A DNA stretch of 64,000 nucleotides from Bacteroidia bacterium (GCA_051861545.1 JBIMKP010000022.1:2025-66024); one strand, 5' to 3'. Shown: positions 45,895 to 62,776, counted from the first letter of the stretch. A program made the numbers and translations. Notes: generated by a model not told the origin, from the sequence alone.

Positions 45895-45904
45895 ATTTTA
45901 CTTA

Positions 45905-46846
45905 TTACCAAGGTAGCTTTAGTTTTTCTATTTCTGTTGTGTATAAATTTTCAAGTTTTTCTATGATATCATGTGAGATAAATGACTCTGTGCTTTTAAC
46001 ATTGCTTATAAGCTGTTCAATAGTTAAATTACCTGGAATTACAGTGGAAACAGCATCATAAGCTAAACAGAAAGCTATTGCTTTTTGAGCCATGTTTTCT
46101 TCTTGCCCCACAATAGACCTAACTTTATTTACTAATTCAGCTCTGGTTTCGATATCATTTTTTGACCACCTGCTTCTTATATCATTAAAAACACTTTCTG
46201 AATTATATTTTCCACTTAACCAACCCGAATCAAGAGGGATTTTAACTATAATTCCAATATCTTTTTGTTGTGCCTGTTTAAACCCTCGCAAAGTATCTTG
46301 ATGAAAAATATTAAAAAACACTTCCATTACTTTTGAGTTAGTGGTTTCCATCAATAACTTCATGTCGTCATAAGTATCTAAAGAAGCACCATAAGCTTTT
46401 ATTTTGCCTTCATCTATAAGTTTGTCGAGAATTTCATAATGGTCATTTTTGTTGCCATCAAAATATTTTGAAGGTGGATTGTGAATGATAAGTGAGTCGA
46501 CATAATCTACCTGAAGTCTTTTAAGGCTTCCTTCTAAAGATTCTCTGATGTAATTCGAATTAAAATTTAATAAGCCATCATGTGTGTGACCAAATTTTGT
46601 ATTAATTACAATTGTATTTCGCTCAACTCTTTTAAGTGCTTTTCCTAATCTTTCCTCACCAGAACCATGACCATAATTTGGAGCTGTATCAAAGAAGTTA
46701 ATTCCCAAATCCAAAGATTGATGAACAAGATTAATTGCCTCAGGTTCTGACATACTTTTCCATCCCGAATTTTGTCCTAATTGCCAAGCACCAAGACCAA
46801 TTTCAGATATATTTATGGAGTTATTGATGTATTTCTTGTATTTCAT
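45905..46846 (-). CDS. aldo/keto reductase
   Basis: 313 aa; GLGAWQLG, DTAPNYGHG, IIHNP motifs. Confidence 0.85.
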   Translation of the reverse strand: MKYKKYINNSINISEIGLGAWQLGQNSGWKSMSEPEAINLVHQSLDLGINFFDTAPNYGHGSGEERLGKALKRVERNTIVINTKFGHTHDGLLNFNSNYIRESLEGSLKRLQVDYVDSLIIHNPPSKYFDGNKNDHYEILDKLIDEGKIKAYGASLDTYDDMKLLMETTNSKVMEVFFNIFHQDTLRGFKQAQQKDIGIIVKIPLDSGWLSGKYNSESVFNDIRSRWSKNDIETRAELVNKVRSIVGQEENMAQKAIAFCLAYDAVSTVIPGNLTIEQLISNVKSTESFISHDIIEKLENLYTTEIEKLKLPW

Positions 46847-46946
46847 TTGTTGAAAATTTCTTTTAAAGGATTCTCTTAGTCTAAACTTTATTCTTTGCTA
46901 TTTCTGGAATTTAATCAACTGAATATTCTTATATTTCATTGTTCTT

Positions 46947-47378
46947 TTATTGCTTAAACATTTGACTGGAAATTATTCCTTTATTATTTTGATTTGGCTC
47001 AATTAAGTCCCATAAATTGCCATATAAGTCTTCGAATACAGCAACTGTTCCATATTCAAAAGTAGTAGGAGCTCTAACAAAATTTATTTGATTATTTAAC
47101 ATTTTGTTATAATCTCTAAAAAAGTCATCAGTGAATAGAAAAAAACCTACTCGTCCGCCGGTTTGATTTCCAATACTTTCCCTTTGTTTATCATTTGAAG
47201 CTTTAGCTAGTAAAATGCAACATTCTTTTGCTCCTTTGGGAGCAATGAGTACCCACCTTTTTTCATAGTTTAAGAATGTATCTTCCAAAAGTTGAAAGTC
47301 AAGTTTCTTAGTGTAGAAATCGATAGCCTCATCATAATCGTTTACTACCAATGCAATATGTGCAATTCTTTGATACAT
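46947..47378 (-). CDS. VOC (glyoxalase/bleomycin-resistance) family protein
   Basis: IAHIALVVNDYDEAIDFYTKKLDF. Confidence 0.7.
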   Translation of the reverse strand: MYQRIAHIALVVNDYDEAIDFYTKKLDFQLLEDTFLNYEKRWVLIAPKGAKECCILLAKASNDKQRESIGNQTGGRVGFFLFTDDFFRDYNKMLNNQINFVRAPTTFEYGTVAVFEDLYGNLWDLIEPNQNNKGIISSQMFKQ

Positions 47379-47470
47379 TTCGTTTATTTATTACTTATAG
47401 ATTTTTGATATAAGGTTTACTATCGAATGAATATATTCAATTGTTTAAGCTACTTTTCAAATATTTGGTT

Positions 47471-47818
47471 TTATTGTGTTCCTTTTAGAAAATCACCATC
47501 AATAATAAGAAGTTTTACTCCCTTAGCGGATAAAGATCTGTGAGAGCTAAGTCCATCAGAAACCACGTATGTTTCTCCTTTTGTTAGTTTAATTTTTTCA
47601 CCTGTTTTCAGTTCACTAATAAACTCGCCTTCCAAACAATGCACAATATGTCCTTTTTGACACCAATGGTCTGCTAAATAGCCTTTAGAATATTCTACAA
47701 GTCGAATTCTAAGCCCTTCAAGTTGCAGAGTTTGCCAATAGGCAGAACCGGTTTCGCCTTTATGTTCAATTTTTTCTATAGCAGTCCAATCTATAGTTTG
47801 AAATGGTATGTTAAACAT
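47471..47818 (-). CDS. cupin-domain protein
   Basis: 115 aa; HxH...E...H-type beta-barrel segment (DHWCQKGHIVHCLEGEF). Confidence 0.55.
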   Translation of the reverse strand: MFNIPFQTIDWTAIEKIEHKGETGSAYWQTLQLEGLRIRLVEYSKGYLADHWCQKGHIVHCLEGEFISELKTGEKIKLTKGETYVVSDGLSSHRSLSAKGVKLLIIDGDFLKGTQ

Positions 47819-47985
47819 TTTGTTTGTGGGTTTATAATAGTGATTTTATCTTAGGTTTTGAAGAGAAATAGTGAGGATAAGGTTATAATTTAATTTATTT
47901 TATTGATGCGAATTTTTCTAAAACAATTATCCTTCGAATCCAAGCCTATAATTCATCTACTAAGCAGTTGATGATGTCTTTTAAA

Positions 47986-48534
47986 CTAATAATCTTCTTC
48001 TAATTCTCTTTTTATAATTTGTTTTGCTGATTTCCTATCTGTCTTACGAATTTTGGATTTTTCTTTTTGGTGGTATTTTTTCTTATCACTAAAAAAGTTC
48101 ATGCTTGTCCATGCTAAACCGGAATCATTTTTTACTATTAAACCATTCCAAATGCAGTCTTCGTAAGGACAACTATGCTTTGAGTATGTTCCAAAATTTC
48201 TATGTTTAATTCTCTTTTCAGAAAGGATTTTATGTTGATTTATTTTAATAGTATTCCAAATATTCTCTTGGTCTCCTTTAGTAAGAATTTGACCTAATGT
48301 TGATACTTCAACATATGTCATTGGGTCTTTAAGTTGTAGGAAATCAAATGTCTTAATAAAAAAATTGTGTGCATGGTTTCTAACCTGGATTTTATGTTCA
48401 ATATTTAATTTGTCATTTTCTAATAATGAACGGTAAAGACCTAAGGTATTGAAGTCCTCATATTCTTTATAATTGTCTATGTAAAACAAATATTCTGCAA
48501 TTGTTAAAAGACTAAATTTTTTGCCAATTTTCAT
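47986..48534 (-). CDS. hypothetical protein, Lys-rich C-terminus
   Basis: 182 aa, no recognisable domain. Confidence 0.4.
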   Translation of the reverse strand: MKIGKKFSLLTIAEYLFYIDNYKEYEDFNTLGLYRSLLENDKLNIEHKIQVRNHAHNFFIKTFDFLQLKDPMTYVEVSTLGQILTKGDQENIWNTIKINQHKILSEKRIKHRNFGTYSKHSCPYEDCIWNGLIVKNDSGLAWTSMNFFSDKKKYHQKEKSKIRKTDRKSAKQIIKRELEEDY

Positions 48535-48726
48535 TCTTCAATTTGTATCTTTTGTTAATATTATCTTTTTGAAATTTTTTAGATTGGATAATATGTTAGC
48601 CGCGCTCTAGCCTTTAAAATACTATATTTCTTTTGAAGGCCATACTTCAATAATAGTAAAATTCGATTAAGTGATGATAATATACTTAAATGAAGGTAAT
48701 TTTTTGATGACTGAAATTGTTTCTTT

Positions 48727-49338
48727 TTAAGTAGAAAGTTTGTCTTTTAAAATGATTTTTAGTTTCTGAAATACATAATAAACTAAAAGTCCGATTAAGA
48801 ACCCAATTAAAAGTCCAACAACTGCCCCTATAAATAATGCAGTTTCTGTTGTGAACCAATGAACTAAATTGTTTAGTATCCAAATTCCTATTGAACCAAC
48901 AAATACTCCGGCTGTAGTTGTTGTTGAAAAGATAAATGTTTTGATAGCACTCTTGACCGATTTATAATAAATCCCTATAATAACTGAAGCAAAAATTATT
49001 CCGATACCAATTAATCCAATGATTAGTAAAATTTCTATGGCGGTCAAAACTATACCCGCTCCGATACCAAGAAACATCAATCCAATTCCCATCAATCCAA
49101 ATATCCCAGGTCCGTTTAATACATCACCTTCAATCTCTTCGTTAAAGTTCTCTGTTTGGTTTTGAGTTAATGTGTCAGCCTTGATTTTTTTTGCTTGTGT
49201 ATCATTTCTTATTTGACCATAAGAATATGAAGAAGTAAAAGTCAGAATTGAAATTATTAACAAGCCTACAAAAACCTTTAAAATTGCAATTATGCTTTTA
49301 AAAGTTACCATTCCCATTTTATTTATCAAGGTCTTCAT
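48727..49338 (-). CDS. hypothetical membrane protein with extended glycine-zipper helices
   Basis: GIFGLMGIGLMFLGIGAGIVLTAIEILLIIGLIGIGIIF; overlaps the upstream gene by 20 nt. Confidence 0.5.
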   Translation of the reverse strand: MKTLINKMGMVTFKSIIAILKVFVGLLIISILTFTSSYSYGQIRNDTQAKKIKADTLTQNQTENFNEEIEGDVLNGPGIFGLMGIGLMFLGIGAGIVLTAIEILLIIGLIGIGIIFASVIIGIYYKSVKSAIKTFIFSTTTTAGVFVGSIGIWILNNLVHWFTTETALFIGAVVGLLIGFLIGLLVYYVFQKLKIILKDKLST

Positions 49339-49924
49339 ATTTATAGGAGTTTGTGGTTAATGTTTTGTCTTTTAAATATCCCCAATACGTTTCGTTTCGA
49401 TTTGGGTTTGTTATATATTCAATACCATCTACGCAATCATTTGTATCAAATTCGAAACTAACATTCCCTTTTGCATATAACTTTAAGTCACAAGCTCCGT
49501 AAGGAAAATAAATTGATGTGTCTAGCCAATACTCATAACAATCATTATCTATATTTTCTAGGGTCCATTCTCTTTTATATTCTACTTGTTTGCCTGTTTT
49601 GTCCTTTAAGATTTCTTTATTATCATAAGGTGAAATAGATATTTTTCCTGCTACTACATTTATAAATGTCAAAGTACCAAAACCCTGAATTATTGTTTCA
49701 TGAGCAGAAGAATTCTGAATTATTGATTTTAAATTAATTTCCTTTTCTAAGTTTTTGAATTGTGTCCAGTCAAAACCAGGCATTAGGCCGGCACCCCAGA
49801 CTTTAAATGAAACTGTTTTTGGTAGGATATTAGTTGGTTCGAAAAAAATAGTCTTGCTATCGTAAAAGTTTACACTATTTGCGTCATCAAATAATTCTCT
49901 TGTTAAGTCTATTGTTACTTTCAT
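49319..49924 (-). CDS. hypothetical soluble protein
   Basis: 201 aa; no known motif; translationally coupled to the 48727..49338 gene. Confidence 0.45.
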   Translation of the reverse strand: MKVTIDLTRELFDDANSVNFYDSKTIFFEPTNILPKTVSFKVWGAGLMPGFDWTQFKNLEKEINLKSIIQNSSAHETIIQGFGTLTFINVVAGKISISPYDNKEILKDKTGKQVEYKREWTLENIDNDCYEYWLDTSIYFPYGACDLKLYAKGNVSFEFDTNDCVDGIEYITNPNRNETYWGYLKDKTLTTNSYKYEDLDK

Positions 49925-50107
49925 TTTAATTACTGTTTAGTTATTCGATGTCCTCGTTTTTGAATTAGGCTAAGTTTAGAAAATGTGCTGTTTTGGGCTG
50001 TGCTACTTTTGTTGTCCAATAAGTTTCAAATTAGTACTAAAATTTAATAGAAGTGCAAGGCTATTACTTGGCACATCTGCCCACCTGAAACAAAACCCTT
50101 TTTAGTT

Positions 50108-50542
50108 TTACGTTTTATTTAATGTCTGTAATTCACTTATTAATTCTTCTAATCGGGTCTTTGTGCTTCGCTTACTATAGTTGTAAATTGGTCTAAATAT
50201 TAGGAACATCAAAAACAAATAGAATAAAGTGCAAACTGCAATTGGAATGAACATTTTATTTAATATTGAAAAATACATCCCCAATAAAGGTAGGATAGTA
50301 AATGTAGCAGTTATTCGCATATCTAAGATTAAATACCCGTTTATTTCAGTTCCTTTATCCGTCGCTTTCCAAGTTAAATTAACCATAGGTCTGAATGCAT
50401 TTCTTATTGGAAATTGACCAAGTGTAAATTTTGTATTATTGTTTATAATTGAACCATAAAATGCATTGTTAGACGACATTTGAAAAGAGTTGTATTGCTG
50501 AATATTAGTTTCTATGATACTTTGTGCTTGCTTTACGGTCAA
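50108..50542 (-). CDS. hypothetical membrane protein
   Basis: 144 aa; two C-terminal TM helices. Confidence 0.45.
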   Translation of the reverse strand: MTVKQAQSIIETNIQQYNSFQMSSNNAFYGSIINNNTKFTLGQFPIRNAFRPMVNLTWKATDKGTEINGYLILDMRITATFTILPLLGMYFSILNKMFIPIAVCTLFYLFLMFLIFRPIYNYSKRSTKTRLEELISELQTLNKT

Positions 50543-50558
50543 ATCACTAACTAATGTA

Positions 50559-50802
50559 GGGCTTGCTGAAAATCTAAATTAGCACTAATTATCAATCAAT
50601 TGAATTAGTTTTTTATAAATCACGGGAAAGGTTTTAAGAACAATTGCTTAAAAATCCTTGCATCAAGTAAAATTAGATTTCAAATTACCTAAAGACAGAA
50701 ACAAGGCCATCTTTGTCGTTGCTGCCAAACTGAGGTATTATTTATACATCTATTTTGGCAGCGTCTAAAATCTGACCTGTTTCTGTCTTTTTCAGCGGGC
50801 CC
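50559..50802 (+). mobile_element. MITE-like palindromic element, copy 3
   Basis: TIRs GGGCTTGCTGAAAA...TTTTCAGCGGGCCC; 7-bp TSD TAATGTA (50552..50558 and 50803..50809); lies 16 bp upstream of the start codon of the 50108..50542 gene. Confidence 0.85.
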
Positions 50803-51027
50803 TAATGTAAATTTATCGGTCTTAAATGGAAACATATGTCTGTTATCTTGGGCTTAAATCTAAGGTTTTTTAGCTAGACGAAGTGGTTGACTTTGATGCA
50901 CCTACTTTCAATTTGGCATATAATCCGATAATTTGCCAAACTGCGGTTAAAGTTTTGGGCTCAATTTCGGTTAAGATTATTTTTTATTTTCCTGTTCTTC
51001 AAAATTGTTAAAGTATGTAAAAGGCAT

Positions 51028-51690
51028 TTAAAGGGCCTGTTTGCGGTAAGCTTTAACGGCTCGTTTAAGCGCTTTTTCAATATTTTTAAAGTTTACATGT
51101 TGGCTTTTACTGTACATGTTTCTATCCCAATGTACTTGCTGTCCGTTAATAAAGCTTAGGCCATTTTCATCAAATACACAAAACAATATAGTTAGCGTAT
51201 TCTGCATAAACAAAATTTGGCCCGGTGGAGAAGTTACACCTTCATATGCTGAAAAATTTAGGATAGGTAACATGTGCGCTTGAGTTACTGAGTAATTTTT
51301 ACTTAACGAATCGAGCAATGGCTTAAAAAATAACTTATCACTAACAACACTTAGAGGTGCTGCTTGCACCGTAAAAGGTTTAATCTTAAAAAGAATATCA
51401 TTATTTAAGGCTGTAAAAAGGTGTTTAATAATGGTATCTCTATAGAAGGTATCATTAAGTAATATTCTTTGGCCAGTTTTATTGGTAGCTATATGGTTTA
51501 TAAGCCCACAATAAATCACCTGATTTGTGATTAAAGGCTTAGCAGACATTGCTTGGCTATGTTTCAGATTAAAACGTCTGTAAGCGATATTTTTATTATT
51601 GCAAGCCACCAATAGCATCAAGCAAATAAGTGCAACATAGTGGCTTTTAAAAACCAATTTATTATTCAATAGATAGATTTTCGGTATCAT
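51028..51690 (-). CDS. hypothetical lipoprotein
   Basis: Lipobox LLVAC; 220 aa. Confidence 0.5.
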   Translation of the reverse strand: MIPKIYLLNNKLVFKSHYVALICLMLLVACNNKNIAYRRFNLKHSQAMSAKPLITNQVIYCGLINHIATNKTGQRILLNDTFYRDTIIKHLFTALNNDILFKIKPFTVQAAPLSVVSDKLFFKPLLDSLSKNYSVTQAHMLPILNFSAYEGVTSPPGQILFMQNTLTILFCVFDENGLSFINGQQVHWDRNMYSKSQHVNFKNIEKALKRAVKAYRKQAL

Positions 51691-51728
51691 TATTTAAAAT
51701 GGCTTATATCGTTTTATATATTTGTTTT

Positions 51729-51826
51729 TGGCCGGCGTTTATAATCAAATGTATATATGGGAAACGAATTAATCAACCAATAAAATCGCATTAGAAGGAG
51801 AGGTATTGCATTTAAATTGTTATATT
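51729..51826 (-). promoter_or_regulatory. conserved upstream module A (promoter plus conserved ~50-bp upstream sequence)
   Basis: One of four similar ~100-bp modules; on the minus strand it reads TTGATTAATTCGTTTCCCATATATACATTTGA, i.e. -33 TTG / -7 TAnnTTTG. Confidence 0.5.
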
Positions 51827-51839
51827 GAGTTTTCAATCG

Positions 51840-52331
51840 TTAGTGCGAGCTACCGAAATATTTTTTCTCATCAAGGTCATAATAAGCAAATACAGAATTG
51901 CATTGCCATCCAACGGCATTAATACTTTTTGTTCTATTTTTGGTTATAACACCGATTTCCTTATATCTAACTCCTATCCAAGCTCGTCTTTTTTCTTGAG
52001 GAATGGTTTGGATGTCCTTAGTTTTATAGAATTGTATCAAATTGTTAATTGGTATTGATTTTACTTTATCAAAAGCCCAATTCGTCTCGTAAATAATTAT
52101 AGTTGTAATTAAGATATATGTAAAAAATATTGATGTAATAATTATGACTTTAATATATCGTGGTCTTAACCCGAAAAAATCATAAGCTTTATAGCCATAG
52201 AATATACCAATTCCAATTATCCCGTAAAGTGGTAGATATATTATAATGTCAAAGTCCATTTCTAACCCAATTATTGTCATCATAGATATGATAAATAAAT
52301 ATGTTAAAAGATATTTGATGGTTTTTGCCAT
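51840..52331 (-). CDS. hypothetical membrane protein
   Basis: 163 aa; 3 TM helices plus C-terminal soluble part. Confidence 0.5.
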   Translation of the reverse strand: MAKTIKYLLTYLFIISMMTIIGLEMDFDIIIYLPLYGIIGIGIFYGYKAYDFFGLRPRYIKVIIITSIFFTYILITTIIIYETNWAFDKVKSIPINNLIQFYKTKDIQTIPQEKRRAWIGVRYKEIGVITKNRTKSINAVGWQCNSVFAYYDLDEKKYFGSSH

Positions 52332-52378
52332 TTTTTTTGTCGTTTTTATAATACCCTATAACTTTTTGCACATTTGCT

Positions 52379-52480
52379 TTGGACCTGCGTTTAAACTCAA
52401 ATGTAAATAGGGGAAAAGAATTAATCAACCTCTAAAATCTGTAAAACGGAGAGGTAATGCCAGTAAATTGTAATTGTGTG
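52379..52480 (-). promoter_or_regulatory. conserved upstream module B
   Basis: GCGTTTAAACTCAAATGTAAATAGGGGAAAAGAATTAATCAAC...; most similar to modules C and D. Confidence 0.5.
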
Positions 52481-52481
52481 T

Positions 52482-53339
52482 TTAATGTTTGGGTTTGTTG
52501 ATTTCATCAATTGTCAAGCTTTTATAAAAAGTTTCAAAGTCTTTGTCTTCTCCATAGTTGTTTATGATTTCAAATAAGGTGGAATACTTTTTCAAATAAA
52601 TCATTTGTCTGTATGGTTCCTTTTTGTTCGTGCTTTGAAGTATTACACGTATTGCTTTTGTATTATTGATGTTTATTGTGTCACGCTTTTCGCTTACTTG
52701 TCCTTTGAATATAGATTTTTCTATTGCAATAAAATGCTCATTTTTATAGTCGCTAGTGTCTTGCATCCAGATGCACCATTTCATTGAATTTGTTATATCA
52801 TTTTCGGGGTTCTCAATTTTGTCTCCAATGCACTTTCCATTTTGAATATTTTCTACAACTAAATTTTCGGGGTATTTGAAACTTATTACAAAACCAAAAT
52901 TTACTGTGTCTCGATATGTCATCCAATTAACATCAGTTAAAAACTCAAGTTCTCCTTTTTCTACAGTTTTCGTGTATTGTTTTGCTTTTCCGTCATTGTT
53001 GGTAAACCCAATTACAACAAAGTCTTGGTTGTATAAAAGTCGAAAGTTTTTTTGTGTCACATTAACTTTAGCAATGTAAGATGCAGTAGTGCTTTTCCAA
53101 TTATCATGATTGTTGTTCACCCAGTGGATTAATTTTTTAAACTTTTCAGAATTAGGGTCAATTTTTTTTGTTACACTTTCTGTAAGTCCAGTTTGGTCGT
53201 TGATTTTGTGAATTGTTAAATTCAATGGTGAATTGAGGTCAATATATTTTTCAATACTTGTTTCTGTTGAACAACTTGAAATTGTCAACAGTGAAATAAA
53301 AGTTATAATGATAATCGTTCCATTCATAGTTTTTGTCAT
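52482..53339 (-). CDS. hypothetical lipoprotein
   Basis: Lipobox LTISSC; 285 aa. Confidence 0.5.
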   Translation of the reverse strand: MTKTMNGTIIIITFISLLTISSCSTETSIEKYIDLNSPLNLTIHKINDQTGLTESVTKKIDPNSEKFKKLIHWVNNNHDNWKSTTASYIAKVNVTQKNFRLLYNQDFVVIGFTNNDGKAKQYTKTVEKGELEFLTDVNWMTYRDTVNFGFVISFKYPENLVVENIQNGKCIGDKIENPENDITNSMKWCIWMQDTSDYKNEHFIAIEKSIFKGQVSEKRDTININNTKAIRVILQSTNKKEPYRQMIYLKKYSTLFEIINNYGEDKDFETFYKSLTIDEINKPKH

Positions 53340-53524
53340 AGCCTTTCCACTGATGTTCTGAGAGCTTGCACAGTGCGGATTCGATACAGAATTGTTTCAG
53401 CCAAATGCGAACTTAGTGGGAAGATCATACTTTCACAAAAAGAAAAACCACATTACAATAAGCCCTTTGTAAGTAGGTGGTTTATCAATTTCTTCTTTTG
53501 AAGTAGTAGTTATTGAGAAGACTA

Positions 53525-54130
53525 TTATAGGTTGTTAATGTCTTTGTTTAAAAGATAAAACTCCTTATCATAATTATCTATCAGTTTCTTATCCAAGTTA
53601 AGTTGTTTGACTGTCTTGCCAGTTGAATAGTTTTGTAATGATACAATTTTGCCATTTAGTATATCAATACTTAAGGTGTCGAAAAATTTATCAGTCGGTA
53701 ATTGAGATGTCTGAAAAACAACTGTTTTGTTGTTTGTTGTTTTACAAGCATAAATCATATACTCAGTATTTGAAACAAACTCGTAGGAGTAGTCTGTAAT
53801 AGTGAATATATGTTGAGTAATCTCTTTATTTTTATTGTCTTTCGATTTCAATTTATGAAGTCCCTTCAAATAATAAATAGTTGCACTAAGCACTGAAAGA
53901 CCAGCTAATACAGGTTTTAAATACACTGAGGGCGTGATTAGTCCGAACTTTTCGGAAATAAGTAAAAGTACCATTAGTCCGAAGAATGTTAGCACGCCAA
54001 TTATTACGCTGTCACTAAGTGCTTTTTTTCTTAAATGTTCTTTTTGCTTTTTTAAGTCAGCAAGTACAGAAGATGATAGACTTTTCTCAACTATTTTCAT
54101 TCGTAATTTTTGGCATTTTTGGTTTGACAA
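53525..54130 (-). CDS. hypothetical membrane protein
   Basis: 201 aa; two TM helices then a soluble domain; the start is possibly MKIVEK at 54109. Confidence 0.5.
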   Translation of the reverse strand: MSNQKCQKLRMKIVEKSLSSSVLADLKKQKEHLRKKALSDSVIIGVLTFFGLMVLLLISEKFGLITPSVYLKPVLAGLSVLSATIYYLKGLHKLKSKDNKNKEITQHIFTITDYSYEFVSNTEYMIYACKTTNNKTVVFQTSQLPTDKFFDTLSIDILNGKIVSLQNYSTGKTVKQLNLDKKLIDNYDKEFYLLNKDINNL

Positions 54131-54175
54131 GATTGATTGTTAAAACTTGTCGATAGGGTTTTGATTATTTGTTAT

Positions 54176-54284
54176 TGGCCAGCGATTATACTCAAATGTA
54201 AATAGGGGAAAGGAATTAATCAACTAGTAAATCCCGTTAAACAGAGACGAATTGCACACCTATTGTAATTGTACTCTGTACTCT
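54176..54284 (-). promoter_or_regulatory. conserved upstream module C
   Basis: GCGATTATACTCAAATGTAAATAGGGGAAAGGAATTAATCAAC...GAGACGAATTGCACACCTATTGTAATTGT. Confidence 0.5.
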
Positions 54285-54333
54285 TAGTGGCTGATGTTCT
54301 ATCCAATCTTTTGCTTTATTTAATATTAGTTTA

Positions 54334-55128
54334 TTAGCTATTATTTGATTTCTCTCTCTCTAACCCAATTCTGTTTACGGTTTCATAAAGTAAAGTTGCA
54401 TTCACTAACAAGCGTTCAAGCTCTTGTTCAAAAAATGCTTCAGTATGTTCGTTCCACTTTTTTGGTGAATTATTCAACTCTCTAAAACTTTTTGAAAGAG
54501 TTGAAATGTATTCCTTTTTTTGTGGAGCATCATTGATAAAAATTGGTGGATATAAATCAAACATCAGCATCCAGTTTTTCGCAATTCTTGTTACTCTCCC
54601 GTTGCCATCTGCGAATGGATGAATTCTAATCAACTCGTGATGAAAATAAATAGCTCTGATAATAGGATTTGTTATACTATTCATTTGATAAAATAGCTCC
54701 GAAACTAACTGCGGAACAATGTTTTGATCAGGACAAATATGTCCACCTATTTGCACTAAAGTCTGTCTGTAACGATTTGGGTGAATGGCATTGGTCTCAG
54801 GAGAAACTAAACGGAGTAACTGAAAAAGTTGTAATTCTTTTTCAAAATTGTTGTGTGTTATTATCTCCTCAATTACAAAGTCTAACGATATTTTTAAGTT
54901 TTTTAAATATTCTTCTGCTTCCTCTTCATTTTGAGCTTCCATTTGTGCATTTTTCAAACTAAGAAGTTCTTGGAGTTCTTGTACACTAGTCAAGTATGTG
55001 TCTAAAAGGTCGTCATCCAAATGGTGTCGGCTATATATAATTAATCTATAAATTGACTTTACTAAATGGTCAATCTTATCAATTTTGGCTTGATTAATTT
55101 TTAATTCTTTAACTGGTAATAATTCCAT
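54334..55128 (-). CDS. Fic/DOC family protein
   Basis: Canonical HPFADGNGRVTR Fic motif. Confidence 0.8.
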   Translation of the reverse strand: MELLPVKELKINQAKIDKIDHLVKSIYRLIIYSRHHLDDDLLDTYLTSVQELQELLSLKNAQMEAQNEEEAEEYLKNLKISLDFVIEEIITHNNFEKELQLFQLLRLVSPETNAIHPNRYRQTLVQIGGHICPDQNIVPQLVSELFYQMNSITNPIIRAIYFHHELIRIHPFADGNGRVTRIAKNWMLMFDLYPPIFINDAPQKKEYISTLSKSFRELNNSPKKWNEHTEAFFEQELERLLVNATLLYETVNRIGLEREKSNNS

Positions 55129-55631
55129 TTGTCTATGAATTTGTTAAACTGTAAATCATCGGCTAAGCCTACACTTAAGGTTTTGGTAATTGACCTATTA
55201 AGGGATAGCTTAGCACAAATTTTACCTTAACTGTTAATTTCAAAAATAAACTTTTCTGCCGATTCTTTTTCCTCTAAGATTTAAAGCCATTATTGCAACT
55301 AAACGACTATTGAATGTCGTTTTTTTTAATCATAAAGTTTGCAAACATTTCTATAATAAAAATCACAAGGGATAAACTCATTTCAAACAAAAAAACAGTA
55401 AGCGTTTTTGATAAAATTCTTTTGCTTTTTCTTTTAGGTATTTCATCCTCAAAACTCAACTCAACACGATTATTAAACAAAAAAATACTAATAACAATAG
55501 TTTAAGAAGTTAAATCATTTAACACTATCTGTCTATAAAAATGTTGAAGCATGGTTGAGTATAAAACCTAAAATTATTCCTATTGTGGTTACCAAAGGTT
55601 GTCGATATGATTGAATTTTATCTTCTATATT

Positions 55632-57005
55632 TTACATCAAATCAATTATTTTATCTGCTTCTCTAATGCCACTTAAGTATGCTCCGTGTGCGGTTGAAAA
55701 ATAGTCGGCTTCGGTGTGTTCGCCTGCAAAGAATAATCTATCGTTAATTTCTTCTGCCAAGTCTTCAAAATGGCGCATTTCTGTACCAATTTGAGTGAAA
55801 GAATAAGCTCCGAATGAATTTACATTCGTTTGCCATTTAGTTCTCAGCATATTGGTAGGATTAGGAATACTATTTCCATAAATATCTTTTAAATGAGCCA
55901 TTATTTCGTCTATTATTTGTGCATCCGTCATTGATTCTGTCTGCCTTGCATAATTTGAATATGCAAAAGTCATTAAACCATTTAGGCTTGGGTGAAATTT
56001 TTTAACATTCACAAAATAGTTGAACTTATCTCTTGTTTCTGGTGTGTAACAAATGTATTGTTCATTGTCCCAAAATGCAGTATTCCAAGTAAGTAAAAAT
56101 TTATTGACGCAATTCATACCAACTTTTTGAATAGCTGTTTGTTTAGCTGTAGGCAATGTTGGAACAAATTGTATAGTGCCTGATTTTAAAACTCCCAGTG
56201 GAACGGTTACCAATACATAATCAGCTTCTGTGATAGTTTCATTATGTGTAATCTTTGCCTTAGAGTTTGAATAATCAATTTTTGAAACTCGTTGATTAAG
56301 TTGAATATTTAATCCCTCTGCTAAAAAAAATGGAATAGTGTCATATCCATTCGTTGAAATTCTTTCTTCTCCTGTAAACTCTTCGCCTTCATCATACAAT
56401 GTTGAGGAAACTTTATCTAATTCGCCTAAATCAAATGTTACATAAGTAGATAATAAAAATTTCCAAAGTCTATCATTTACTTTTGTTGGGTGCAAGCTAT
56501 TAAAAACAGTTTCAAAACTTTGGTTTGCACTTCCGCTATTTTTAAGAGTACTTAAAATGGTTTGTAATTCTGTTTCGGCATTATCAAATGCTGTGTCGCT
56601 TCTCAAAACGCCACTAATATCATAGCACACTAAACTTTCATCATCAGTGAAAGCTGTGTTCATTCCTGCTTGTTGAGCCAAATTTGTGATTGGGTTTCCA
56701 TTTGTTCCGTGTATCCAACTTGCTCCTTCGTCAAAAGCAAAGCCAAGAGATCGATTAGTTCGTAATCGTCCACCCACTTTATCTTGTGCTTCTAACACAA
56801 TTATATTGAAACCTTTTTCTTTCAGTTTTTTTGCTGCTGCTAAACCTGAAATTCCTGCTCCAATAACTACAACTGTTTTTCCGTTTGGTTCGTGGTCTTC
56901 ATCTTTATTACAAGAACTTGCTAAAATTGAAGGTGCGATAAGAAAAATTTGTAAACCTGTTAAGGAGTCTTTTATAAATTTTCTTCTTTCCATTTTTTTG
57001 TCCAT
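55632..57005 (-). CDS. flavin-containing amine oxidase family protein with Tat/lipoprotein-type signal
   Basis: RRKFIKDSLTG twin-arginine segment; VVVIGAGISGLAAAKKL dinucleotide-binding motif; amine-oxidase C-terminal FFAGEHT. Confidence 0.8.
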   Translation of the reverse strand: MDKKMERRKFIKDSLTGLQIFLIAPSILASSCNKDEDHEPNGKTVVVIGAGISGLAAAKKLKEKGFNIIVLEAQDKVGGRLRTNRSLGFAFDEGASWIHGTNGNPITNLAQQAGMNTAFTDDESLVCYDISGVLRSDTAFDNAETELQTILSTLKNSGSANQSFETVFNSLHPTKVNDRLWKFLLSTYVTFDLGELDKVSSTLYDEGEEFTGEERISTNGYDTIPFFLAEGLNIQLNQRVSKIDYSNSKAKITHNETITEADYVLVTVPLGVLKSGTIQFVPTLPTAKQTAIQKVGMNCVNKFLLTWNTAFWDNEQYICYTPETRDKFNYFVNVKKFHPSLNGLMTFAYSNYARQTESMTDAQIIDEIMAHLKDIYGNSIPNPTNMLRTKWQTNVNSFGAYSFTQIGTEMRHFEDLAEEINDRLFFAGEHTEADYFSTAHGAYLSGIREADKIIDLM

Positions 57006-57067
57006 ATTTTAGTTTGTTCATGGTGTTTCGCTATAATAGCATTCAATGTTTTTAGCGCTTCTGCGAT

Positions 57068-57166
57068 GGTTGTGCGTTTATGCTCAAATGTAAATAGGGG
57101 AAAGGAATTTACCAACCACTAAAATCCCTTTAAATGGAGACGAATTGCATGCCTATTGTGAATGTG
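57068..57166 (-). promoter_or_regulatory. conserved upstream module D
   Basis: GCGTTTATGCTCAAATGTAAATAGGGGAAAGGAATTTACCAAC...GAGACGAATTGCATGCCTATTGTGAATGT; about 80% identical to module C. Confidence 0.5.
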
Positions 57167-57809
57167 CTGTAAGCGGTAGTTGTGTTGGTCATCGTCATCA
57201 ATTTCTCTGACTTTAATATTGTCCAAATAGACCTTTTTATTTACGTTATTTTTATACTTTTATAAGGTCTTGTTTTGATATAAAATAAACTTCGGTGTCT
57301 TAAAATATAGAAGTACTTTATTTTAAATTGTCGTCTTTTTATTTATAGTTTATTATTATTTCTAGTCAATTTGTCTTTTTAGATTTTTTTTAATCTGCTC
57401 CGGTTGGGCAATTGATGTATTATTTTATCTTGTTCTAAACATACCAAGTCCATATAAGAGTCGATAGGTTTCTATGTCAAAAGTGTATTTATTTGAAATA
57501 ACATTTCTAAAGACTTCGAAAGAAGGTTCCTGATTGCTGCGACACTTGTCACAACAGTCCACTGAAAAATTTGTCTCGTCCTGAAAAATGTTTACACTTA
57601 TTGATAAATAATCCTGTTACATGTTTACACAATTTTTTAAATCCTGAATACCGTTTACATTTGTTTTACTGGATGAAGCGGAAGCGAGCTCTGCTGAGGA
57701 GCAACTCGCCAGGAATAATCCAGTCAGATGAGCATATAAATCCGTTATTAGGTTTACACTTGATAATGGATTTACTTTTTATATGCACTTCTGCCAAGCC
57801 TAATAAAAC

Positions 57810-58656
57810 CTATGCCATAGCTACCTCCTCCTTTTTTTGTTTATTGATTTGATAATAATTTTTCCATCGTTTGTTGAGTTTTCCGGTTCCTTGATGTGCT
57901 TCAACAGGTTTAAGATTATCAATGCTCCCATGCGGTCTTAAATGATTGTAAGTGCTACAAGCTACAGCTATTGCTAGTTGTGCTATTTTAAAATCGACAA
58001 ATACCTCTTCTAAAAGTTCAGATTTTAAAATACCGTTTACTCTTTCTGCAAGCGGGTTTTCCAAGGGGTCTCCATTTTCTGTCATTGAAATTTTAATGGT
58101 ATTATTGTGTAATAACTTTACATATTCATCGCAGCAGTATTGCACTCCTCTATCACTGTGATGAATTAAATTTTCACAATCTGTATTACCGGTCAAAGCC
58201 ATTTTTAATGCTTTTAATGGACCTTTTGCCGATAAATCTTCACTCAAATAAAAGCCAACAATTTTATGGCTGTATGCATCTGTTATAAGTGATAAATAAG
58301 CAAAGTCATCCGATAAATGAATATAGGTTATATCACTTACCCAAAGCTGATTAGGGGCAATGGGTATAAAGCCTTTAATGATGTTTGGAAAGTGTGGTTA
58401 TACATCCTTTGCGCCTTCGTTTTGTAATCAACATGCCTCGTTCTGCCAATAGATTAAACATTGCATCTCTTCCTATTTGAAAATTATGGTCTTCTAAAAA
58501 TCCTTGCATTTCATGCAATAGTTTTCGGGTGCCTAATCGCTTCTGATGCTTTCGATAACGCAACACTTCATCAATGACAATATCAGCTTCGTATGCTTTT
58601 TGCTGAATAAATTTTAGGCCTTGATAGTAGCTTTGCCTACTATAACCAAGCAGCAA
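57810..58656 (-). pseudogene. IS3-family transposase OrfB (rve integrase core), frameshifted
   Basis: DDE region ...WVSDITYIHL..., HSDRGVQYC, ERVNGILKSE. The reading frame breaks at about 58375 between ...TLSKHH* and KGFIPIAPNQLW. Confidence 0.7.
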
Positions 58657-58700
58657 ACAAAGGTCGTTTATGCAACGAGGCTTCCTTTGTCCAACTGTTT

Positions 58701-59033
58701 CTACCGCTTGGTGCCAGACTTTTTTCTGATGTCAATTTTAAGTTGATCTTCTGCAATATCAATCATTGCGTTGAGCAGCTCGTTGTGAAGTTTTGCTTTA
58801 CGCAATTCTTCCTGCAAAGTTTTTACATCAGTTGGTAAGGGCTCTGCAGAAATTGGTTGGATTTGTGTTTTTGTTTTTGGCACTGATTTACCTTGAAATT
58901 TTCTTACCCACGAATGTATTAATCTGAAATCAATCTCATGCTTTTTTCCTAACTGGCGGTAACTTAATTCGCCCATTAAATACTCTGCAATGATTTTCTC
59001 TTGTTCTTCTTTTGTTTTCGTTCTTCTTTTCAT
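58701..59033 (-). CDS. IS3-family transposase OrfA (HTH/leucine-zipper)
   Basis: 110 aa; EEQEKIIAEYLMGELSYRQLGKKHEI helix-turn-helix. Confidence 0.8.
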   Translation of the reverse strand: MKRRTKTKEEQEKIIAEYLMGELSYRQLGKKHEIDFRLIHSWVRKFQGKSVPKTKTQIQPISAEPLPTDVKTLQEELRKAKLHNELLNAMIDIAEDQLKIDIRKKSGTKR

Positions 59034-59143
59034 TTTTGTTTACACTTTTTTGTGTAAACCTATTTTAGGACGAGACAGTCTACTTTAATTATAGACCATA
59101 ATTCTTTAATTAAAATCTTTTAGATGATGATTTTTGTGAATTG

Positions 59144-61207
59144 TCAATTATTTTGTCTACACACTCTACTTACATACTTCTTCCCAGTTTCACTTGTCAC
59201 CTCCATCAGGTAAATACCTGGCCCAAAAGACAAGGAATTCAGTTTAAGTAAGTGGGTTGCTGAAACTTGTTCCTCTAATATCCTTCTTCCTTGCAGGTCG
59301 GTAATTTTGTATCCGATAATGCGCTCAGAACTTAGTGTAACATTAAGTTCATCTCTTGAAGGATTGGGATAAATAGAAAACTTATTTTCAATAACCTCAT
59401 TAAGTCCTGTGGTAGTTTTTTGCCAAGCAGTGAGTTTAATCCGGTAAAGTGGCTGGGTTGGGTGGTTTGTGGAAATATTAAGGAATGCAGTGCGGGAAAG
59501 TGTATCAGATATGCGAAATAACACTGGAATAGATAGGCTATTCTTAGTGTTAAGTATCCTCGGTCTGCTTACTACAGAGAAAGCAGCTGTATCTCCGGTT
59601 ATGTATATGGAGTTAATTTTCAGTGGAGTATTACCCGTATTTTTCAGTTCGAGCATGGTTTCAATCTCTTGTCCAGCAGATGGATTTCCATAGCTAATAA
59701 CTGCCTCATTTGGCAAAAGTGTTTTATTTCTGTGTACTTCATAGGTTATGTTCTGACCAATTCCATTTCCAAATAGCCTAAGTGTGTAATTACCAGTATA
59801 ATTGTCGTTTGTTACGAGGCTTAATAAGGATGTTGACAGGCCGTTAAGCGTAGCATGAAATCTGATAGTAAGTGTTGCTATTCCTCCAGGATTTACCGTA
59901 GTGCTATCTAGCCTATAAGACCAACCTATATTACTGCTTAATAGTACCTGATTAATCGTAAGTGGCAGGTTTCCTTGGTTGTATACATGAAAGGTCCTAA
60001 ACACCGTATCGCCCACCATAACAGAAGGAAACAAAAGGCTGTCGTTGTTGGCCAATCCTTTTTCCAATTCATTATCAAATGCAGCATTAAGCAAAATCAA
60101 TGGCCCACCAATACGCACCATTCGGGTAAGGCTATCTTTAAAACTGCCATTTTTGTAGGTGGCGTATAGTTTTACAGGATAAACGCCCGGTGTATTGAAT
60201 TTGTGGGTAGGATGCACCTCATCAGAAAAGCTGCCATCTCCAAAACTCCAACGGTACTTGTAACGGTTGAAATTCTGATAATACTGATTGGCAAAAAACA
60301 ACAGTTTGTTCGACTCGTTTTTGAAAGAAACTTTTTGCGTTGCCGCATCATAAGCAGATACCATGAAATCTGGGGCGGGATCGTAATAGCCCACATTCCA
60401 GTTTTGAAGATTGCTATGGATTATCTGATTAACTGCTAACCTAATGTTGGAAGCAACTGTGCTTGAAAGACCAGGATTATAGGTGATGCCAATTGGTGAT
60501 TTCCTAAAAAGCATATTGTAGAATGTGCACGCAGCCAAATAGGAACCTGCCATAGAAGGATGCGATTCATCGGTGTCATAGAGTTCAATATCCGGATGAT
60601 TGGTGCGCACATATCGCCACACAGCGGCAACAGCAGCTACAGGAAGTTGCTCATTATACCACATGTTGGGGCCTCCCATTTGCATATAATTTTGTTGCAA
60701 CAACGAATCCATGCCCTGATAGGTGCAATAGTAAGCTGCCTTAGGAAACTGTGCACACAGTGAAGGCTCGCCATTTTTTCTTCCCCAGGTCATATAAAGC
60801 ATCGGTATTGCACCTTCTTGGTCAATCGAGATCTTGAGGTCCTGAACACTTTGAATGTTGTTTGGTTCGAAACTATTGGGGGCAATAATGGAGGGTTCAT
60901 TGCAAACCGCTGCGCCCATTACGCTCTGTTGTTGGATAACAACATAGTCCCATTGCGGATCAGCCATCATATCCAAACTCACCTGATCGTTTAAGTGATT
61001 GTTAAATGTATAGCCTCCCGGAGAATTATCGTTGTATATCAAGGTGTCACCTACTGATGAAGCCACATTCTTAATAAGCAGCGGGAGATTGTTGACCGTA
61101 ACATAACTGTTACCGAGAAACAAGGCACGAACTTTTGTTGGTGGCTGTGCAATGGATTTGGTTTGAAATGCCACTGCAAATAGAATTATGAATAAATAAC
61201 GTATCAT
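59144..61207 (-). CDS. secreted PKD-domain protein with T9SS type-A C-terminal sorting domain
   Basis: Signal peptide; YRWSFGDGSFSDEVHPTHKFNTPGVY PKD motif; C-terminus FSIYPNPSRDELNV...GPGIYLMEV Por_Secre_tail. Confidence 0.7.
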   Translation of the reverse strand: MIRYLFIILFAVAFQTKSIAQPPTKVRALFLGNSYVTVNNLPLLIKNVASSVGDTLIYNDNSPGGYTFNNHLNDQVSLDMMADPQWDYVVIQQQSVMGAAVCNEPSIIAPNSFEPNNIQSVQDLKISIDQEGAIPMLYMTWGRKNGEPSLCAQFPKAAYYCTYQGMDSLLQQNYMQMGGPNMWYNEQLPVAAVAAVWRYVRTNHPDIELYDTDESHPSMAGSYLAACTFYNMLFRKSPIGITYNPGLSSTVASNIRLAVNQIIHSNLQNWNVGYYDPAPDFMVSAYDAATQKVSFKNESNKLLFFANQYYQNFNRYKYRWSFGDGSFSDEVHPTHKFNTPGVYPVKLYATYKNGSFKDSLTRMVRIGGPLILLNAAFDNELEKGLANNDSLLFPSVMVGDTVFRTFHVYNQGNLPLTINQVLLSSNIGWSYRLDSTTVNPGGIATLTIRFHATLNGLSTSLLSLVTNDNYTGNYTLRLFGNGIGQNITYEVHRNKTLLPNEAVISYGNPSAGQEIETMLELKNTGNTPLKINSIYITGDTAAFSVVSRPRILNTKNSLSIPVLFRISDTLSRTAFLNISTNHPTQPLYRIKLTAWQKTTTGLNEVIENKFSIYPNPSRDELNVTLSSERIIGYKITDLQGRRILEEQVSATHLLKLNSLSFGPGIYLMEVTSETGKKYVSRVCRQNN

Positions 61208-61219
61208 CTGGATTGTATT

Positions 61220-62776
61220 TTAAGGGTTTAACTTTAGTTTAAGAAGAAAAATTGAAGTACACACACGGTCATGAAAAACAGGATCCGACACCATGTTGGT
61301 ATTGCTGAGTTTTACCGTATTCGCCCCGGGATCGTAATCACAATCATCGGCATGGTTGAAGGTACCAACCACTATCATGTTGCCTGATTTGTCCACTGTC
61401 CAGTCGTAAACCCTTTCTTCTCCCACACCACCAAAATGAGTCAAGGAAATGAGGTTGTCGTAATCATCGCTATTAGTTACAATAAAATCTGTATAACCTC
61501 TTGCCAAAAAAGTGCTATTTCCAGATTTTCCTTCATAGAAATAGCGCAACGAATCATTGGTATTATTCATGTCACCAATAGAGTTGGTTCCAGTTATACT
61601 TGTTGCTGCCACAGAACCGCTACGGTTGTAATTTTTACTCATAAAACGGCTCACTGTGCGGGCATGCAGAAACTGGCCTGCTGTATCAAAGTCGGCAACA
61701 AAGCCGGGGAATTCTGCTGAACCAGAAACAAAGAAGGAGTCGATACTGGGATCAACATCGATCTGCTGCTGGTAGGGTAAATAGCCAGTAGCCTTTAAGC
61801 GATTTTTATAAAGGCTAATATCTGAGTTGATGAAAGGCTTAGTCCACATGCGTGTGCCGTTTTCAGCATACTTTACCAGCCATTGTTGAGGTGTTTGGCA
61901 CATGGATTTGGCATCTAATAATGTACAATAGATGATGCCTTTGTCATCCACATCAAATGAAGTTATACCGGTATAAGATAATTCATTGTATTCTAAGCCA
62001 GAAGAAACGCGCACATCAATAGTTAGTTCTAAATCCAAGTTAAGGCTGTAGCGGTATACCTTTTCTTGATATATTACATAAAAATGAGTGGCTGTAATTT
62101 TATAAGCACTTTCGATGGTATTGGAAGAGCTGCGTACTAGGAAAATAGGAAGCATAGTTGCTTTAACAAAATTGCCCTGATCAGTTAGCTTCACAAGATA
62201 GTATCTACCTGCTTGCCCAGCGATTACTCCTACTCCGGGATCCAAATCAGCCTGGCCACCTTCTAGCCAAAAAGTCATGTAAACATTTCCTGCCTCATCA
62301 GTTCGTACAAAAGTATTCTCAAACATGTGCCCTAGATTTGCAAAAGTCGGATTACCTAAGCCATAAAAATTCTTTACAAACAGAAAATTACCAGCACTGT
62401 CGTATTTGGCTAGAAACATTACATTCTTATGGTTTGAAGGAGGAATCATCCAAACCCCATTGCCAAAATCAGTAGAGTCGGAATAAAAACCAGTTACCAA
62501 AATGTTATTATTAGCATCCGTTGTTACAGAGTGCCCTTTCCTTGAAATATTATTAAGAGCTTCTGGGCCAGGTCCAAGCTCGCGATTGATATCGAAGCCC
62601 CCGCCCAACTGCTTAACCCATTGCAGACTGATTTGCGCTTGTAGTGAATAAGAAAAAAAAGTAAAAAGAAAGAGCACCAAAGCGGCTTTGCCTATTGTGC
62701 CTCTTTTAAGCCTAAAAACAGACAATAAGGGAGGCATAAAAATTAGCCTAATGCCAAATAAAATTAGTTTTTTCAT
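61220..62776 (-). CDS. hypothetical secreted beta-propeller-like protein
   Basis: 518 aa; signal sequence; SBBP-like repeats. Confidence 0.5.
   Translation of the reverse strand: MKKLILFGIRLIFMPPLLSVFRLKRGTIGKAALVLFLFTFFSYSLQAQISLQWVKQLGGGFDINRELGPGPEALNNISRKGHSVTTDANNNILVTGFYSDSTDFGNGVWMIPPSNHKNVMFLAKYDSAGNFLFVKNFYGLGNPTFANLGHMFENTFVRTDEAGNVYMTFWLEGGQADLDPGVGVIAGQAGRYYLVKLTDQGNFVKATMLPIFLVRSSSNTIESAYKITATHFYVIYQEKVYRYSLNLDLELTIDVRVSSGLEYNELSYTGITSFDVDDKGIIYCTLLDAKSMCQTPQQWLVKYAENGTRMWTKPFINSDISLYKNRLKATGYLPYQQQIDVDPSIDSFFVSGSAEFPGFVADFDTAGQFLHARTVSRFMSKNYNRSGSVAATSITGTNSIGDMNNTNDSLRYFYEGKSGNSTFLARGYTDFIVTNSDDYDNLISLTHFGGVGEERVYDWTVDKSGNMIVVGTFNHADDCDYDPGANTVKLSNTNMVSDPVFHDRVCTSIFLLKLKLNP

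Follow-up and report, generated by a model that had tools for sequence, protein, structure and literature searches.

What is the sequence segment that recurs in front of unrelated genes in a 64,000-nt stretch of DNA from a Bacteroidia bacterium (GCA_051861545.1, JBIMKP010000022.1:2025-66024; hereafter the window, with positions counted from its first letter)? A preliminary description had reported four copies of a module of about 100 bp, each bearing a promoter, and had likened the modules and the genes behind them to integron-like arrays of mobile cassettes. Comparison with related loci in other genomes supports that idea through the anatomy of the repeats, covariation of their arms, a rule linking cassette ends, arrays headed by a recombinase, and an oxidase gene block found in five contexts. 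The modules are probably attC-type cassette recombination sites of a Bacteroidota integron-like system, belonging to a long-loop subfamily with a promoter in the loop, and decayed in the window; we put the probability of this reading at about 0.78.

The window is chromosomal Bacteroidota sequence of low GC content (32%) and carries Sua5, a formyltransferase, a sigma-54 regulator, and cargo proteins of the type IX secretion system (T9SS). A repeat search returned a single four-copy family (M1, 51712-51825; M2, 52364-52477; M3, 54159-54272; M4, 57051-57164). The four-copy profile re-detects M1-M4 at E values of 5e-30 to 3e-34 in the 64-kb window and adds a fifth, partial copy comprising the promoter half and the 3′ arm (M5, 45283-45222, E 1e-8); no further profile match with E<0.9 was found anywhere in the window. 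A 26-nt core pattern occurs four times, against 0.00 expected from 100 shuffles, so that repeat search, profile, and shuffled-pattern test agree that the repeat is real. The module is about 125 nt long, and all copies lie on the minus strand in the orientation of the flanking genes. The preliminary description had placed all four copies correctly, with extents slightly short of the full sites, which include conserved tips; its figure of 70-85% identity holds for the core (77-82% pairwise) but not for the full site (63-76%). The Bacteroidetes promoter consensus consists of TTG at -33 and TAnnTTTG at -7. The reported promoter is present in 4/4 copies as the string TTG-N20-TA(c/t)aTTTG, which fits this consensus with a 20-nt spacer, but the end of the -7 box lies 56-93 nt from the start codon rather than 50-75 nt. 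The downstream genes are as unrelated as described (an amine oxidase, membrane proteins, lipoproteins), and a Fic gene that separates the oxidase from the next module went unmentioned.

A degenerate form of the core pattern was found at four loci among 185,579 species genomes and on two real metagenome contigs; this was a strict exact match, and the true count is higher. No copy was found in the viral contigs searched with the same pattern, and one match (L007) was discarded as a chance resemblance to the promoter-like core only. Such rarity means that the module is not a generic promoter, the explanation that the preliminary description had set against its own. The other loci, on Bacteroidota-like contigs, keep the whole segment of about 125 nt and again present it in co-oriented arrays with unrelated genes behind it (three copies in L003, two in L005). 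Iterating the profile of the window-type sites (fam1) alone gained no members; the wider family came into view through a second, related repeat subfamily revealed by an all-against-all BLAST of the loci. The iterated superfamily profile finds about 30 non-redundant sites, including nine in 8 kb of L002, where they occupy nearly every intergenic gap, and seven in L003. The L002 and L003 contigs, which hold the richest arrays, have been assigned to ‘uncultured Bifidobacterium sp.’ and ‘Vulcanococcus limneticus’; since they agree with the Bacteroidota loci in genes and repeats, they are probably mis-binned.

Read in gene orientation, an intact site comprises a variable segment of 8-12 nt, YTAAC (the inverse core, R″), about 1 nt, an arm of about 20 nt, a loop of about 18 or about 72 nt, the complementary arm, AAAAC, and GTTA(G/T) followed by a second variable segment of 8-12 nt (the core, R′). 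Tips (C.GC..CTAAC-A; AAAAC-GTTA[G/T]..G) and center are conserved across the superfamily alignment, and the length from TAAC to GTTA is fixed at 124-129 nt (long loop) or 70-73 nt (short loop). In the ‘master’ copies, the best preserved, inverted arms of 21 nt, GCACATTTGCAATAGGCGTGC ... GCACGCCCATCGCAAATGTGC, are bordered on their outer sides by TAAC (left arm) and AAAAC-GTTA (right arm). Arm sequences differ by subfamily with complementarity kept (TTTGC/GCAAA, TTTGGC/GCCAA, CTACCC/GGGTAG, GGCGCAATGGGGG/CCCCCACTGCGCC). Arm pairing was judged by per-site duplex and permutation tests in place of consensus folding with RNAalifold: the duplex of a 5′ and a 3′ arm from one site averages -23.5 kcal/mol, versus -14.5 kcal/mol for arms of different sites, and 0/20,000 permutations reach the own-arm value. 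An ungapped stem finder was dropped for missing most true sites and returning noise in L019-L022; repeat detection and a reverse-complement extension test were used. Folded as single-stranded DNA, intact copies score z -2.5 to -5.6 relative to shuffles (L002 copies, -3.3 to -5.6). The bottom strand folds better in 18/26 sites (p=0.0025), which is suggestive only, since the sites are related to one another in sequence. With inverse core, core, and imperfect inverted repeat, the intact relatives correspond to the description of attC; an Rfam scan of window positions 44-58 kb gave no match at E<=1.

Cutting at G|TT predicts that the inverse core pairs with the sequence following the previous site's GTT, and not with its own core box. 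In 16 adjacent pairs, R″ of a site and the R′ extension of the site before it agree at 6.31/9 variable positions (P<1e-5), compared with 3.11/9 for the background of 607 non-adjacent pairs and 3.10/9 for pairs within the same site. A profile-independent test of cassette ends in L017 and L019 gives 12/15 matches downstream versus 2/15 in the upstream control; examples of matching ends are GTTACCAGC ... GCTGGTAAC and GTTATAGGGC ... GCCCTATAAC. A four-gene TetR block in L003 is delimited in the same way, as is a single 7.9-kb cassette carrying a gene for a 2,420-aa SpvB/RHS-repeat toxin (L012 229-8321, bounded by GTTAGCGGA ... TCCGCTAAC). This toxin cassette far exceeds the typical size of integron cassettes. 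Since arms pair within a site and extensions pair across the open reading frame (ORF), the exchange point should lie between the 3′ arm and the extension, inside AAAACGTTA, and the end rule in the related arrays identifies their ORF blocks as putative cassettes cut at G|TT.

The anatomy of the sites, the covariation of their arms, the end rule, the linkage to a recombinase, and the decay in the window are shown by sequence comparison; recombination at these sites, the G|TT cut point, folding of the single strand, and promoter activity are what we infer from it. A cassette would begin at the TT of one core box, take in its ORF or ORFs together with the site that follows, and finish at the G of the next core box. 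On excision as a circle its two variable ends would pair, and the folded single strand would offer a long hairpin to the recombinase, which is presumably the tyrosine recombinase of the Xer/IntI group encoded just upstream of complete arrays and co-oriented with them. The module would thus be the 3′ end of the upstream cassette, cut at its far end. The preliminary description, which had joined each module to the ORFs behind it, probably had the right idea of a cassette and the wrong boundaries, judging by analogy with the intact relatives. The loop promoter of window-type sites points at the next cassette; that of site k would read through the 3′ arm into cassette k+1 rather than drive its own, so that distal cassettes need not rely on a single array promoter.

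A recombinase was found in L017, a locus reached via homologs of an L002 cassette lipoprotein. Here a 376-aa tyrosine recombinase heads the array, co-oriented with it, and is followed by an attI-like GTTAGC junction (...ACTAGTTAGCATTC) and at least seven cassettes with same-plan sites of 70-73 nt that obey the end rule over 10-15 nt; cassette products include a HigB/HTH pair and an outer-membrane beta-barrel protein. The recombinase scores 214 bits against the XerA/integron integrase model NF040815 (cutoff 220), 197 against the integron integrase model TIGR02249 (265), 125 against PRK15417 (435), 184 against XerD (329.6), and 177 against XerC (335.15). Compared with solved structures, it is collinear with XerA (5HXY), and its alignment to VchIntIA (2A3V) falls into two pieces; it has 24 aa in place of the 66 of VchIntIA, and the IntI-specific insert is therefore absent. 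The array-associated recombinases also carry about 100 N-terminal residues more than XerA, XerC/D, or IntI (L017 2677-3807, residues 1-100), in which no Pfam domain was detected. Small accessory genes in the same orientation follow 4/4 further homologs of this recombinase that were fetched. Same-plan sites are present in L019 and L021, and the complete arrays of L017, L019, and L021 start directly after the recombinase, which in the related arrays is annotated XerD by the Joint Genome Institute; the L018 sequence ends shortly after the recombinase. The sites in question are short in L017, short with 3′ ends of the same kind in L019, and about 150 nt long, representing a further subtype, in L021.

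A second conserved motif, (A)TCGCTTCG(A/G)..(T)TGGGGGA.ATCG...TTTAAA, occurs in cassette leaders just past the core box (L017 7262-7300, 8150-8175, 9290-9330, and 10860-10885; L019 14945-14985 and 16879-16919). It may be a promoter or leader element of the short-loop arrays, whose loops have no promoter.

The behavior of a putative cassette as a unit can be followed in the window for the amine-oxidase block. It is 91% identical in nucleotide sequence to L009 9948-11700, and the homology (window 57046-55310) extends from M4's core-like box to an inverse-core-like CATTCAA about 17 nt past a small ORF. The block is thus bounded by TTGAATG... and ...CATTCAA in the window and by GTTGTATGCC ... GGCATACAAAC in L009. 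Nothing upstream of M4 is shared with L009, and a clear site follows the block in L009 (11691-11842), at the position equivalent to a strongly decayed candidate site, Mx, in the window. The block occurs in five contexts (window, L003, L009, L012, L013), all with differing neighborhoods. The genes following the oxidase differ between related genomes; the preliminary description had proposed a comparison of cassette content among strains. Close oxidase orthologs (85-93% amino acid identity) on long contigs stand in different neighborhoods without a fam1 module. The block fits a cassette and not simple insertion of a module. The region upstream of the oxidase ortholog in L003, considered as an empty site, turned out to hold a decayed one.

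The window oxidase (55632-57005; P0032, P0096) is 76-93% identical to proteins of many environmental bacteria, including records labelled Thioflexithrix (Gammaproteobacteria) and Sericytochromatia; these identities suggest either recent transfer of the cassette across phyla or mis-binned contigs. The small ORF after the oxidase (window 55310-55631, minus strand) is a pseudogene with an 11-nt deletion and in-frame stops, and corresponds to a predicted membrane protein of 105-106 aa in L009 and L013.

Against this background the features of the window, all on the minus strand, are as follows, beginning at the upstream end of the array.

57039-57176, minus: site M4, attC-like with long loop (E 2e-22 to the superfamily profile)
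57176-57169, minus: M4 inverse-core-like box, CCGCTTAC
57167-57147 and 57075-57055, minus: M4 5′ and 3′ arms, matching at only about 11/21 positions
57115-57085, minus: M4 loop promoter, TTG-N20-TACATTTG
57047-57039, minus: M4 core-like box, ATTGAATGC
55310-57046, minus: putative amine-oxidase cassette with leader, oxidase gene (57005-55632; Pfam 2e-81), and frameshifted small ORF
55167-55319, minus: Mx, probable strongly decayed site between the oxidase cassette and the Fic gene, recognized by eye (profile E 0.086)
Within 55167-55319, minus: parts of Mx recognized by eye, CGACATTCAAT..TTAGTTGCAATAATGGC ... TAAAATTTG ... CCAAAACCTTAAGTGTAGGC
54334-55128, minus: Fic-domain gene, 264 aa, a cassette-like ORF (Pfam Fic 1e-14; PADLOC SoFic 4e-16)
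54149-54291, minus: site M3, a profile match
54291-54283 and 54157-54149, minus: M3 inverse-core-like box GCCACTAAG and core-like box CCTATCGAC
54274-54254, 54223-54193, and 54163-54183, minus: M3 5′ arm, promoter, and 3′ arm
52482-54130, minus: block encoding a membrane protein of 201 aa (54130-53525) and a lipoprotein of 285 aa (53339-52482), both without known domains
52354-52489, minus: site M2, a profile match
52489-52480 and 52362-52354, minus: M2 AACATTAAAC, whose TAA is the stop codon of the lipoprotein gene, and core GTTATAGGG
52479-52459, 52428-52398, and 52388-52368, minus: M2 5′ arm, promoter, and 3′ arm
51840-52331, minus: 163-aa membrane protein, a cassette-like ORF
51702-51848, minus: site M1, a profile match
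51848-51839 and 51710-51702, minus: M1 TCGCACTAAC and core-like box GATATAAGC
51828-51808, 51776-51746, and 51736-51716, minus: M1 5′ arm, promoter, and 3′ arm
51028-51690, minus: 220-aa lipoprotein, predicted to be driven by M1
45894-45341, minus: SUKH/SMI1-KNR4-type immunity gene, split by a frameshift into ORFs of 87 and 65 aa (SUKH_5/SMI1 E 2.5e-4, below the Pfam cutoff)
45199-45273, minus: partial site M5, with loop promoter remnant, 3′ arm, and core-like box only (profile E 1e-8)
57572-59077, minus: degenerate IS3-family element with 26-nt terminal inverted repeats, TGTCTCGTCCTGAAAAATGTTTACAC, 88% complementary (HTH_Tnp_1, rve_3)

All genes between 45 and 57 kb lie on the minus strand. 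In gene orientation, M4 is followed by the oxidase gene with its small ORF, Fic, M3, the 201-aa membrane protein and 285-aa lipoprotein, M2, the 163-aa membrane protein, M1, the 220-aa lipoprotein, nine further small co-oriented genes (among them a glyoxalase, an aldo-keto reductase, and the broken SUKH-type gene), and M5. Most of the cassette proteins have no match in Pfam or PADLOC. Relative to the master consensus, M1-M4 are 88-94% identical over the -33/-7 promoter segment, 48-86% in the arms, and 25-89% in the R boxes, of which fragments remain (GTTATAG in M2, CACTAAC in M1); in the pairing test, the 5′ arm of M4 ranks its own 3′ arm 16th of 26. Weak profile matches in the correct orientation occupy three other gaps of the window (E 6e-4 to 0.086); that of Mx, at E 0.086, has no counterpart on the wrong strand, and only Mx is put forward here as a probable site. 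In its former extent the array probably covered 57.2 to 45.2 kb. The window locus is most likely a fossil array, CALIN-like (from clusters of attC sites without integrase) or resembling the type called rAID (acquired interbacterial defence, associated with a recombinase), in which recombination features have decayed and the promoter segment has been kept. Its sites are most likely immobile and serve now only as promoters of the genes behind them, as their consensus match and the selective retention of the -33/-7 segment suggest. Immunity content against polymorphic toxins, of the kind known from rAID arrays, is hinted at by the broken SUKH-type gene directly upstream of M5.

Several results weigh against the reading of the modules as recombination sites. 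In the window, end pairing is seen only for the oxidase cassette (7 nt, TTGAATG/CATTCAA), and the cassette-end rule fails for the other copies. On its left side, the oxidase homology extends a few bases into the 3′ arm region. The single-stranded folds of the window copies are no better than those of shuffles (z -0.4 to -1.1, M2 and M4 included); family membership of these copies rests on homology to intact sites. RNAalifold found no consensus structure for 12 fam1 copies, since half of them are decayed. Apart from the four related copies, the window shows no enrichment of the strict promoter motif (8 occurrences versus 5.3 expected), a count that is uninformative because four of the matches are those copies. 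The Xer-like recombinase is found in related loci only: as the preliminary description had said of the window, Pfam scans detected no tyrosine recombinase there, a tblastn search found no remnant (E>0.3), and none lies in the 2 kb past the upstream end. A remnant under the IS3 element was also sought and not found. No fam1 or fam2 long-loop site was seen directly beside a recombinase, and the recombinase family is very large in Bacteroidota; some of its members may have other roles. Homologous lipoprotein cassettes in L002 (6760-7763) and L017 (10033-10850) share their variable ends, GTTACCAGC ... CCAGCTGGTAAC, and have different site cores, of the fam2 type in L002 (about 126 nt) and the short type in L017 (about 72 nt). 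A simple integron model does not predict the same cassette ends with different site cores; the mismatch suggests concerted evolution or exchange, that is, homogenization of site cores within arrays. The support is comparative throughout.

Could the modules be no more than a shared promoter and operator, the signature of a regulon under one regulator or sigma factor, with no mobility? The -33/-7 segment is the best-conserved part of every copy (88-97%), each copy faces a downstream gene at a sensible distance, the flanking arms are decayed in the window, and TGCAAT occurs twice in the 5′ half, 11 nt apart by eye, which could be a binding site. Conservation nonetheless covers the whole 125 nt including the promoter spacer, which argues for copying and not convergence, and a regulon predicts neither covarying arms, nor the cassette-end rule, nor the recombinase linkage of the intact relatives. 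Same-plan sites with short loops have no promoter at all, and the closest oxidase orthologs have no module upstream. We consider a regulon unlikely. Local tandem duplication and divergence of one promoter region, with the intervening genes replaced and dedicated machinery never involved, would explain why the window copies are confined to one 12-kb stretch, have diverged (63-76% identity), and have no recombinase nearby. This is very improbable given that the same module occurs in unrelated gene contexts of other genomes, that it belongs to a wider family with a cassette-end rule, and that the oxidase block has moved as a unit among five contexts.

An equally improbable account is that of a miniature inverted-repeat transposable element (MITE) with an outward promoter, inserted between genes by a transposase acting in trans. 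Correia elements of Neisseria are promoter-bearing MITEs that are scattered, occur in both orientations, and have TA target duplications. They resemble the present sites in size (about 100-150 nt), terminal inverted repeats, hairpin fold, and possible provision of a promoter to the neighboring gene, and the master copies do have 21-nt terminal inverted repeats between TA dinucleotides, a size of about 125 nt, near-identical copies on different contigs, and an insertion sequence (IS) element nearby. The sites differ from Correia elements in being arrayed and co-oriented, without duplications, and with variable, covarying arms instead of one fixed transposase-binding sequence: all of the roughly 30 sites are co-oriented with genes in arrays, not scattered, and what their variable flanks show is inverted complementarity across the ORF in place of direct duplications around the element. 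The comparison turned up no empty site, the sequence upstream of M4 having no match in L009; the repeats of the nearby IS3 element are unrelated in sequence; and the other 50 kb of the window lack the module.

Integron attC sites, their integrase-free clusters (CALIN), and sedentary chromosomal integrons whose attC sites are homogeneous, such as those with Vibrio cholerae repeats (VCRs), have been described in detail (Cury et al. 2016, PMC4889954; Neron et al. 2022, PMC9024848), and almost no integrons were reported in Bacteroidetes with IntegronFinder 2.0 (PMC9024848). The intact sites of the present family share with attC the boxes of the RYYYAAC/GTTRRRY type, an inverted repeat that is imperfect, a loop whose content varies, and a size of 70-129 nt. 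As in integrons, cassette ends pair across the ORF, implying a G|TT cut; arrays are co-oriented, with small and mostly unknown genes and with sites similar within an array; cassette types include toxin-antitoxin, GNAT, and glyoxalase genes; and arrays without a nearby integrase are common. M1-M4, if accepted as attC, have the spacing of a CALIN, which takes two or more sites no further than 4 kb apart (652, 1795, and 2892 nt apart, on one strand, no integrase). Unlike in a complete integron, no IntI integrase stands next to the window array. The associated recombinase of the related loci differs from integron integrases in being collinear with XerA and free of the IntI-specific insert, described as essential for integron function (PMC8138268), and in lying upstream and co-oriented rather than divergent. 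R-box pairing is longer (10-15 nt), the spacer is asymmetric (about 1 nt versus AAAAC), and an entire subfamily of sites here has a consensus promoter in the loop, while most integron cassettes have no promoter.

The other close parallel is rAID-1, a class of clusters in gut Bacteroidales (Ross et al. 2019, bioRxiv 10.1101/471110; PMC12247911) defined by occurrence in Bacteroidales, more than 50% identity to a B. fragilis recombinase (BF9343_RS08045), and low GC content relative to the genome (10.1101/471110; PMC12247911). It belongs to the same phylum and likewise places a tyrosine recombinase annotated XerD before co-oriented genes of 100-300 codons, between which lie conserved repeats that have been described as integron-like. 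The window, too, has short genes in one orientation with conserved intergenic motifs. Immunity content is shared to the extent that the window has the SUKH pseudogene, L002 a DUF4375/MORN-like protein (by eye), and L012 the RHS/SpvB toxin cassette, but most cassette proteins here have no recognizable immunity domain. The hosts differ, those of the present loci looking like freshwater Bacteroidia, Flavobacterium, and Chitinophagales, and the window array shows no GC skew (0.309 for 45188-57179, 0.318 for the remaining window) and no recombinase. Figures aside, the main text of the two rAID-1 papers (10.1101/471110; PMC12247911), as searched, mentions no attC anatomy, no treatment of the repeats as sites, no cut point, and no promoter; going by that text, the anatomy of the sites, their cut point, and the promoter in the loop may not have been described before for rAID-1.

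It is tempting to speculate further, at somewhat less than even odds, that Bacteroidota carry a widespread IntI-free analogue of the integron, in which an Xer-like recombinase with an N-terminal region of about 100 aa acts on folded attC-like sites at G|TT, with rAID-1 as the gut branch, loop promoters serving the downstream neighbor, and decayed arrays persisting as promoter-gene units. If true, a large Xer-like family without the IntI insert would run cassette logic across the phylum, which bears on the evolution of integron-type recombination: integron recombination is considered to depend on the insert, which reads extrahelical bases of the folded attC, and these loci suggest the same logic without it. 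Distal integron cassettes are known to be silent; the loop-promoter subfamily may be a solution to this problem and, if so, would allow expression independent of position along the array. For rAID-1 repeats, the analysis supplies a concrete site model and a predicted cut point, and the site profile together with the rule pairing R″ with the previous R′ delimits cassettes of unknown function in Bacteroidota genomes and metagenomes. The message of the window itself is modest, that of a dead array whose sites probably act only as promoters.

Three further observations concern the surroundings of the array. The IS3 element lies about 400 nt upstream of M4 and marks the present upstream end of the array; its orfA is intact (110 aa) and its orfB is broken into pieces of 93 and 145 aa. 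An IS end 85% identical to it is present at L001 1-139, about 1.6 kb upstream of the L001 module. Upstream of the IS element, two T9SS-type secreted proteins (687 and 518 aa, window 59144-62776) have a GC content of 0.40-0.43, compared with about 0.31 in the remaining window; synteny of the window T9SS gene with L017 or L018 was sought and not found. At the opposite end, about 190 nt downstream of M5 in AT-rich, gene-free surroundings, lies a GC-rich, near-perfect nested hairpin of 47 nt (window 44967-45013, minus strand; GACGCCAAAACGG-TCGCGAACC-TTCG-GTTCGCG-CCCGTTTTGGCGTC), perhaps a terminator or another type of site.

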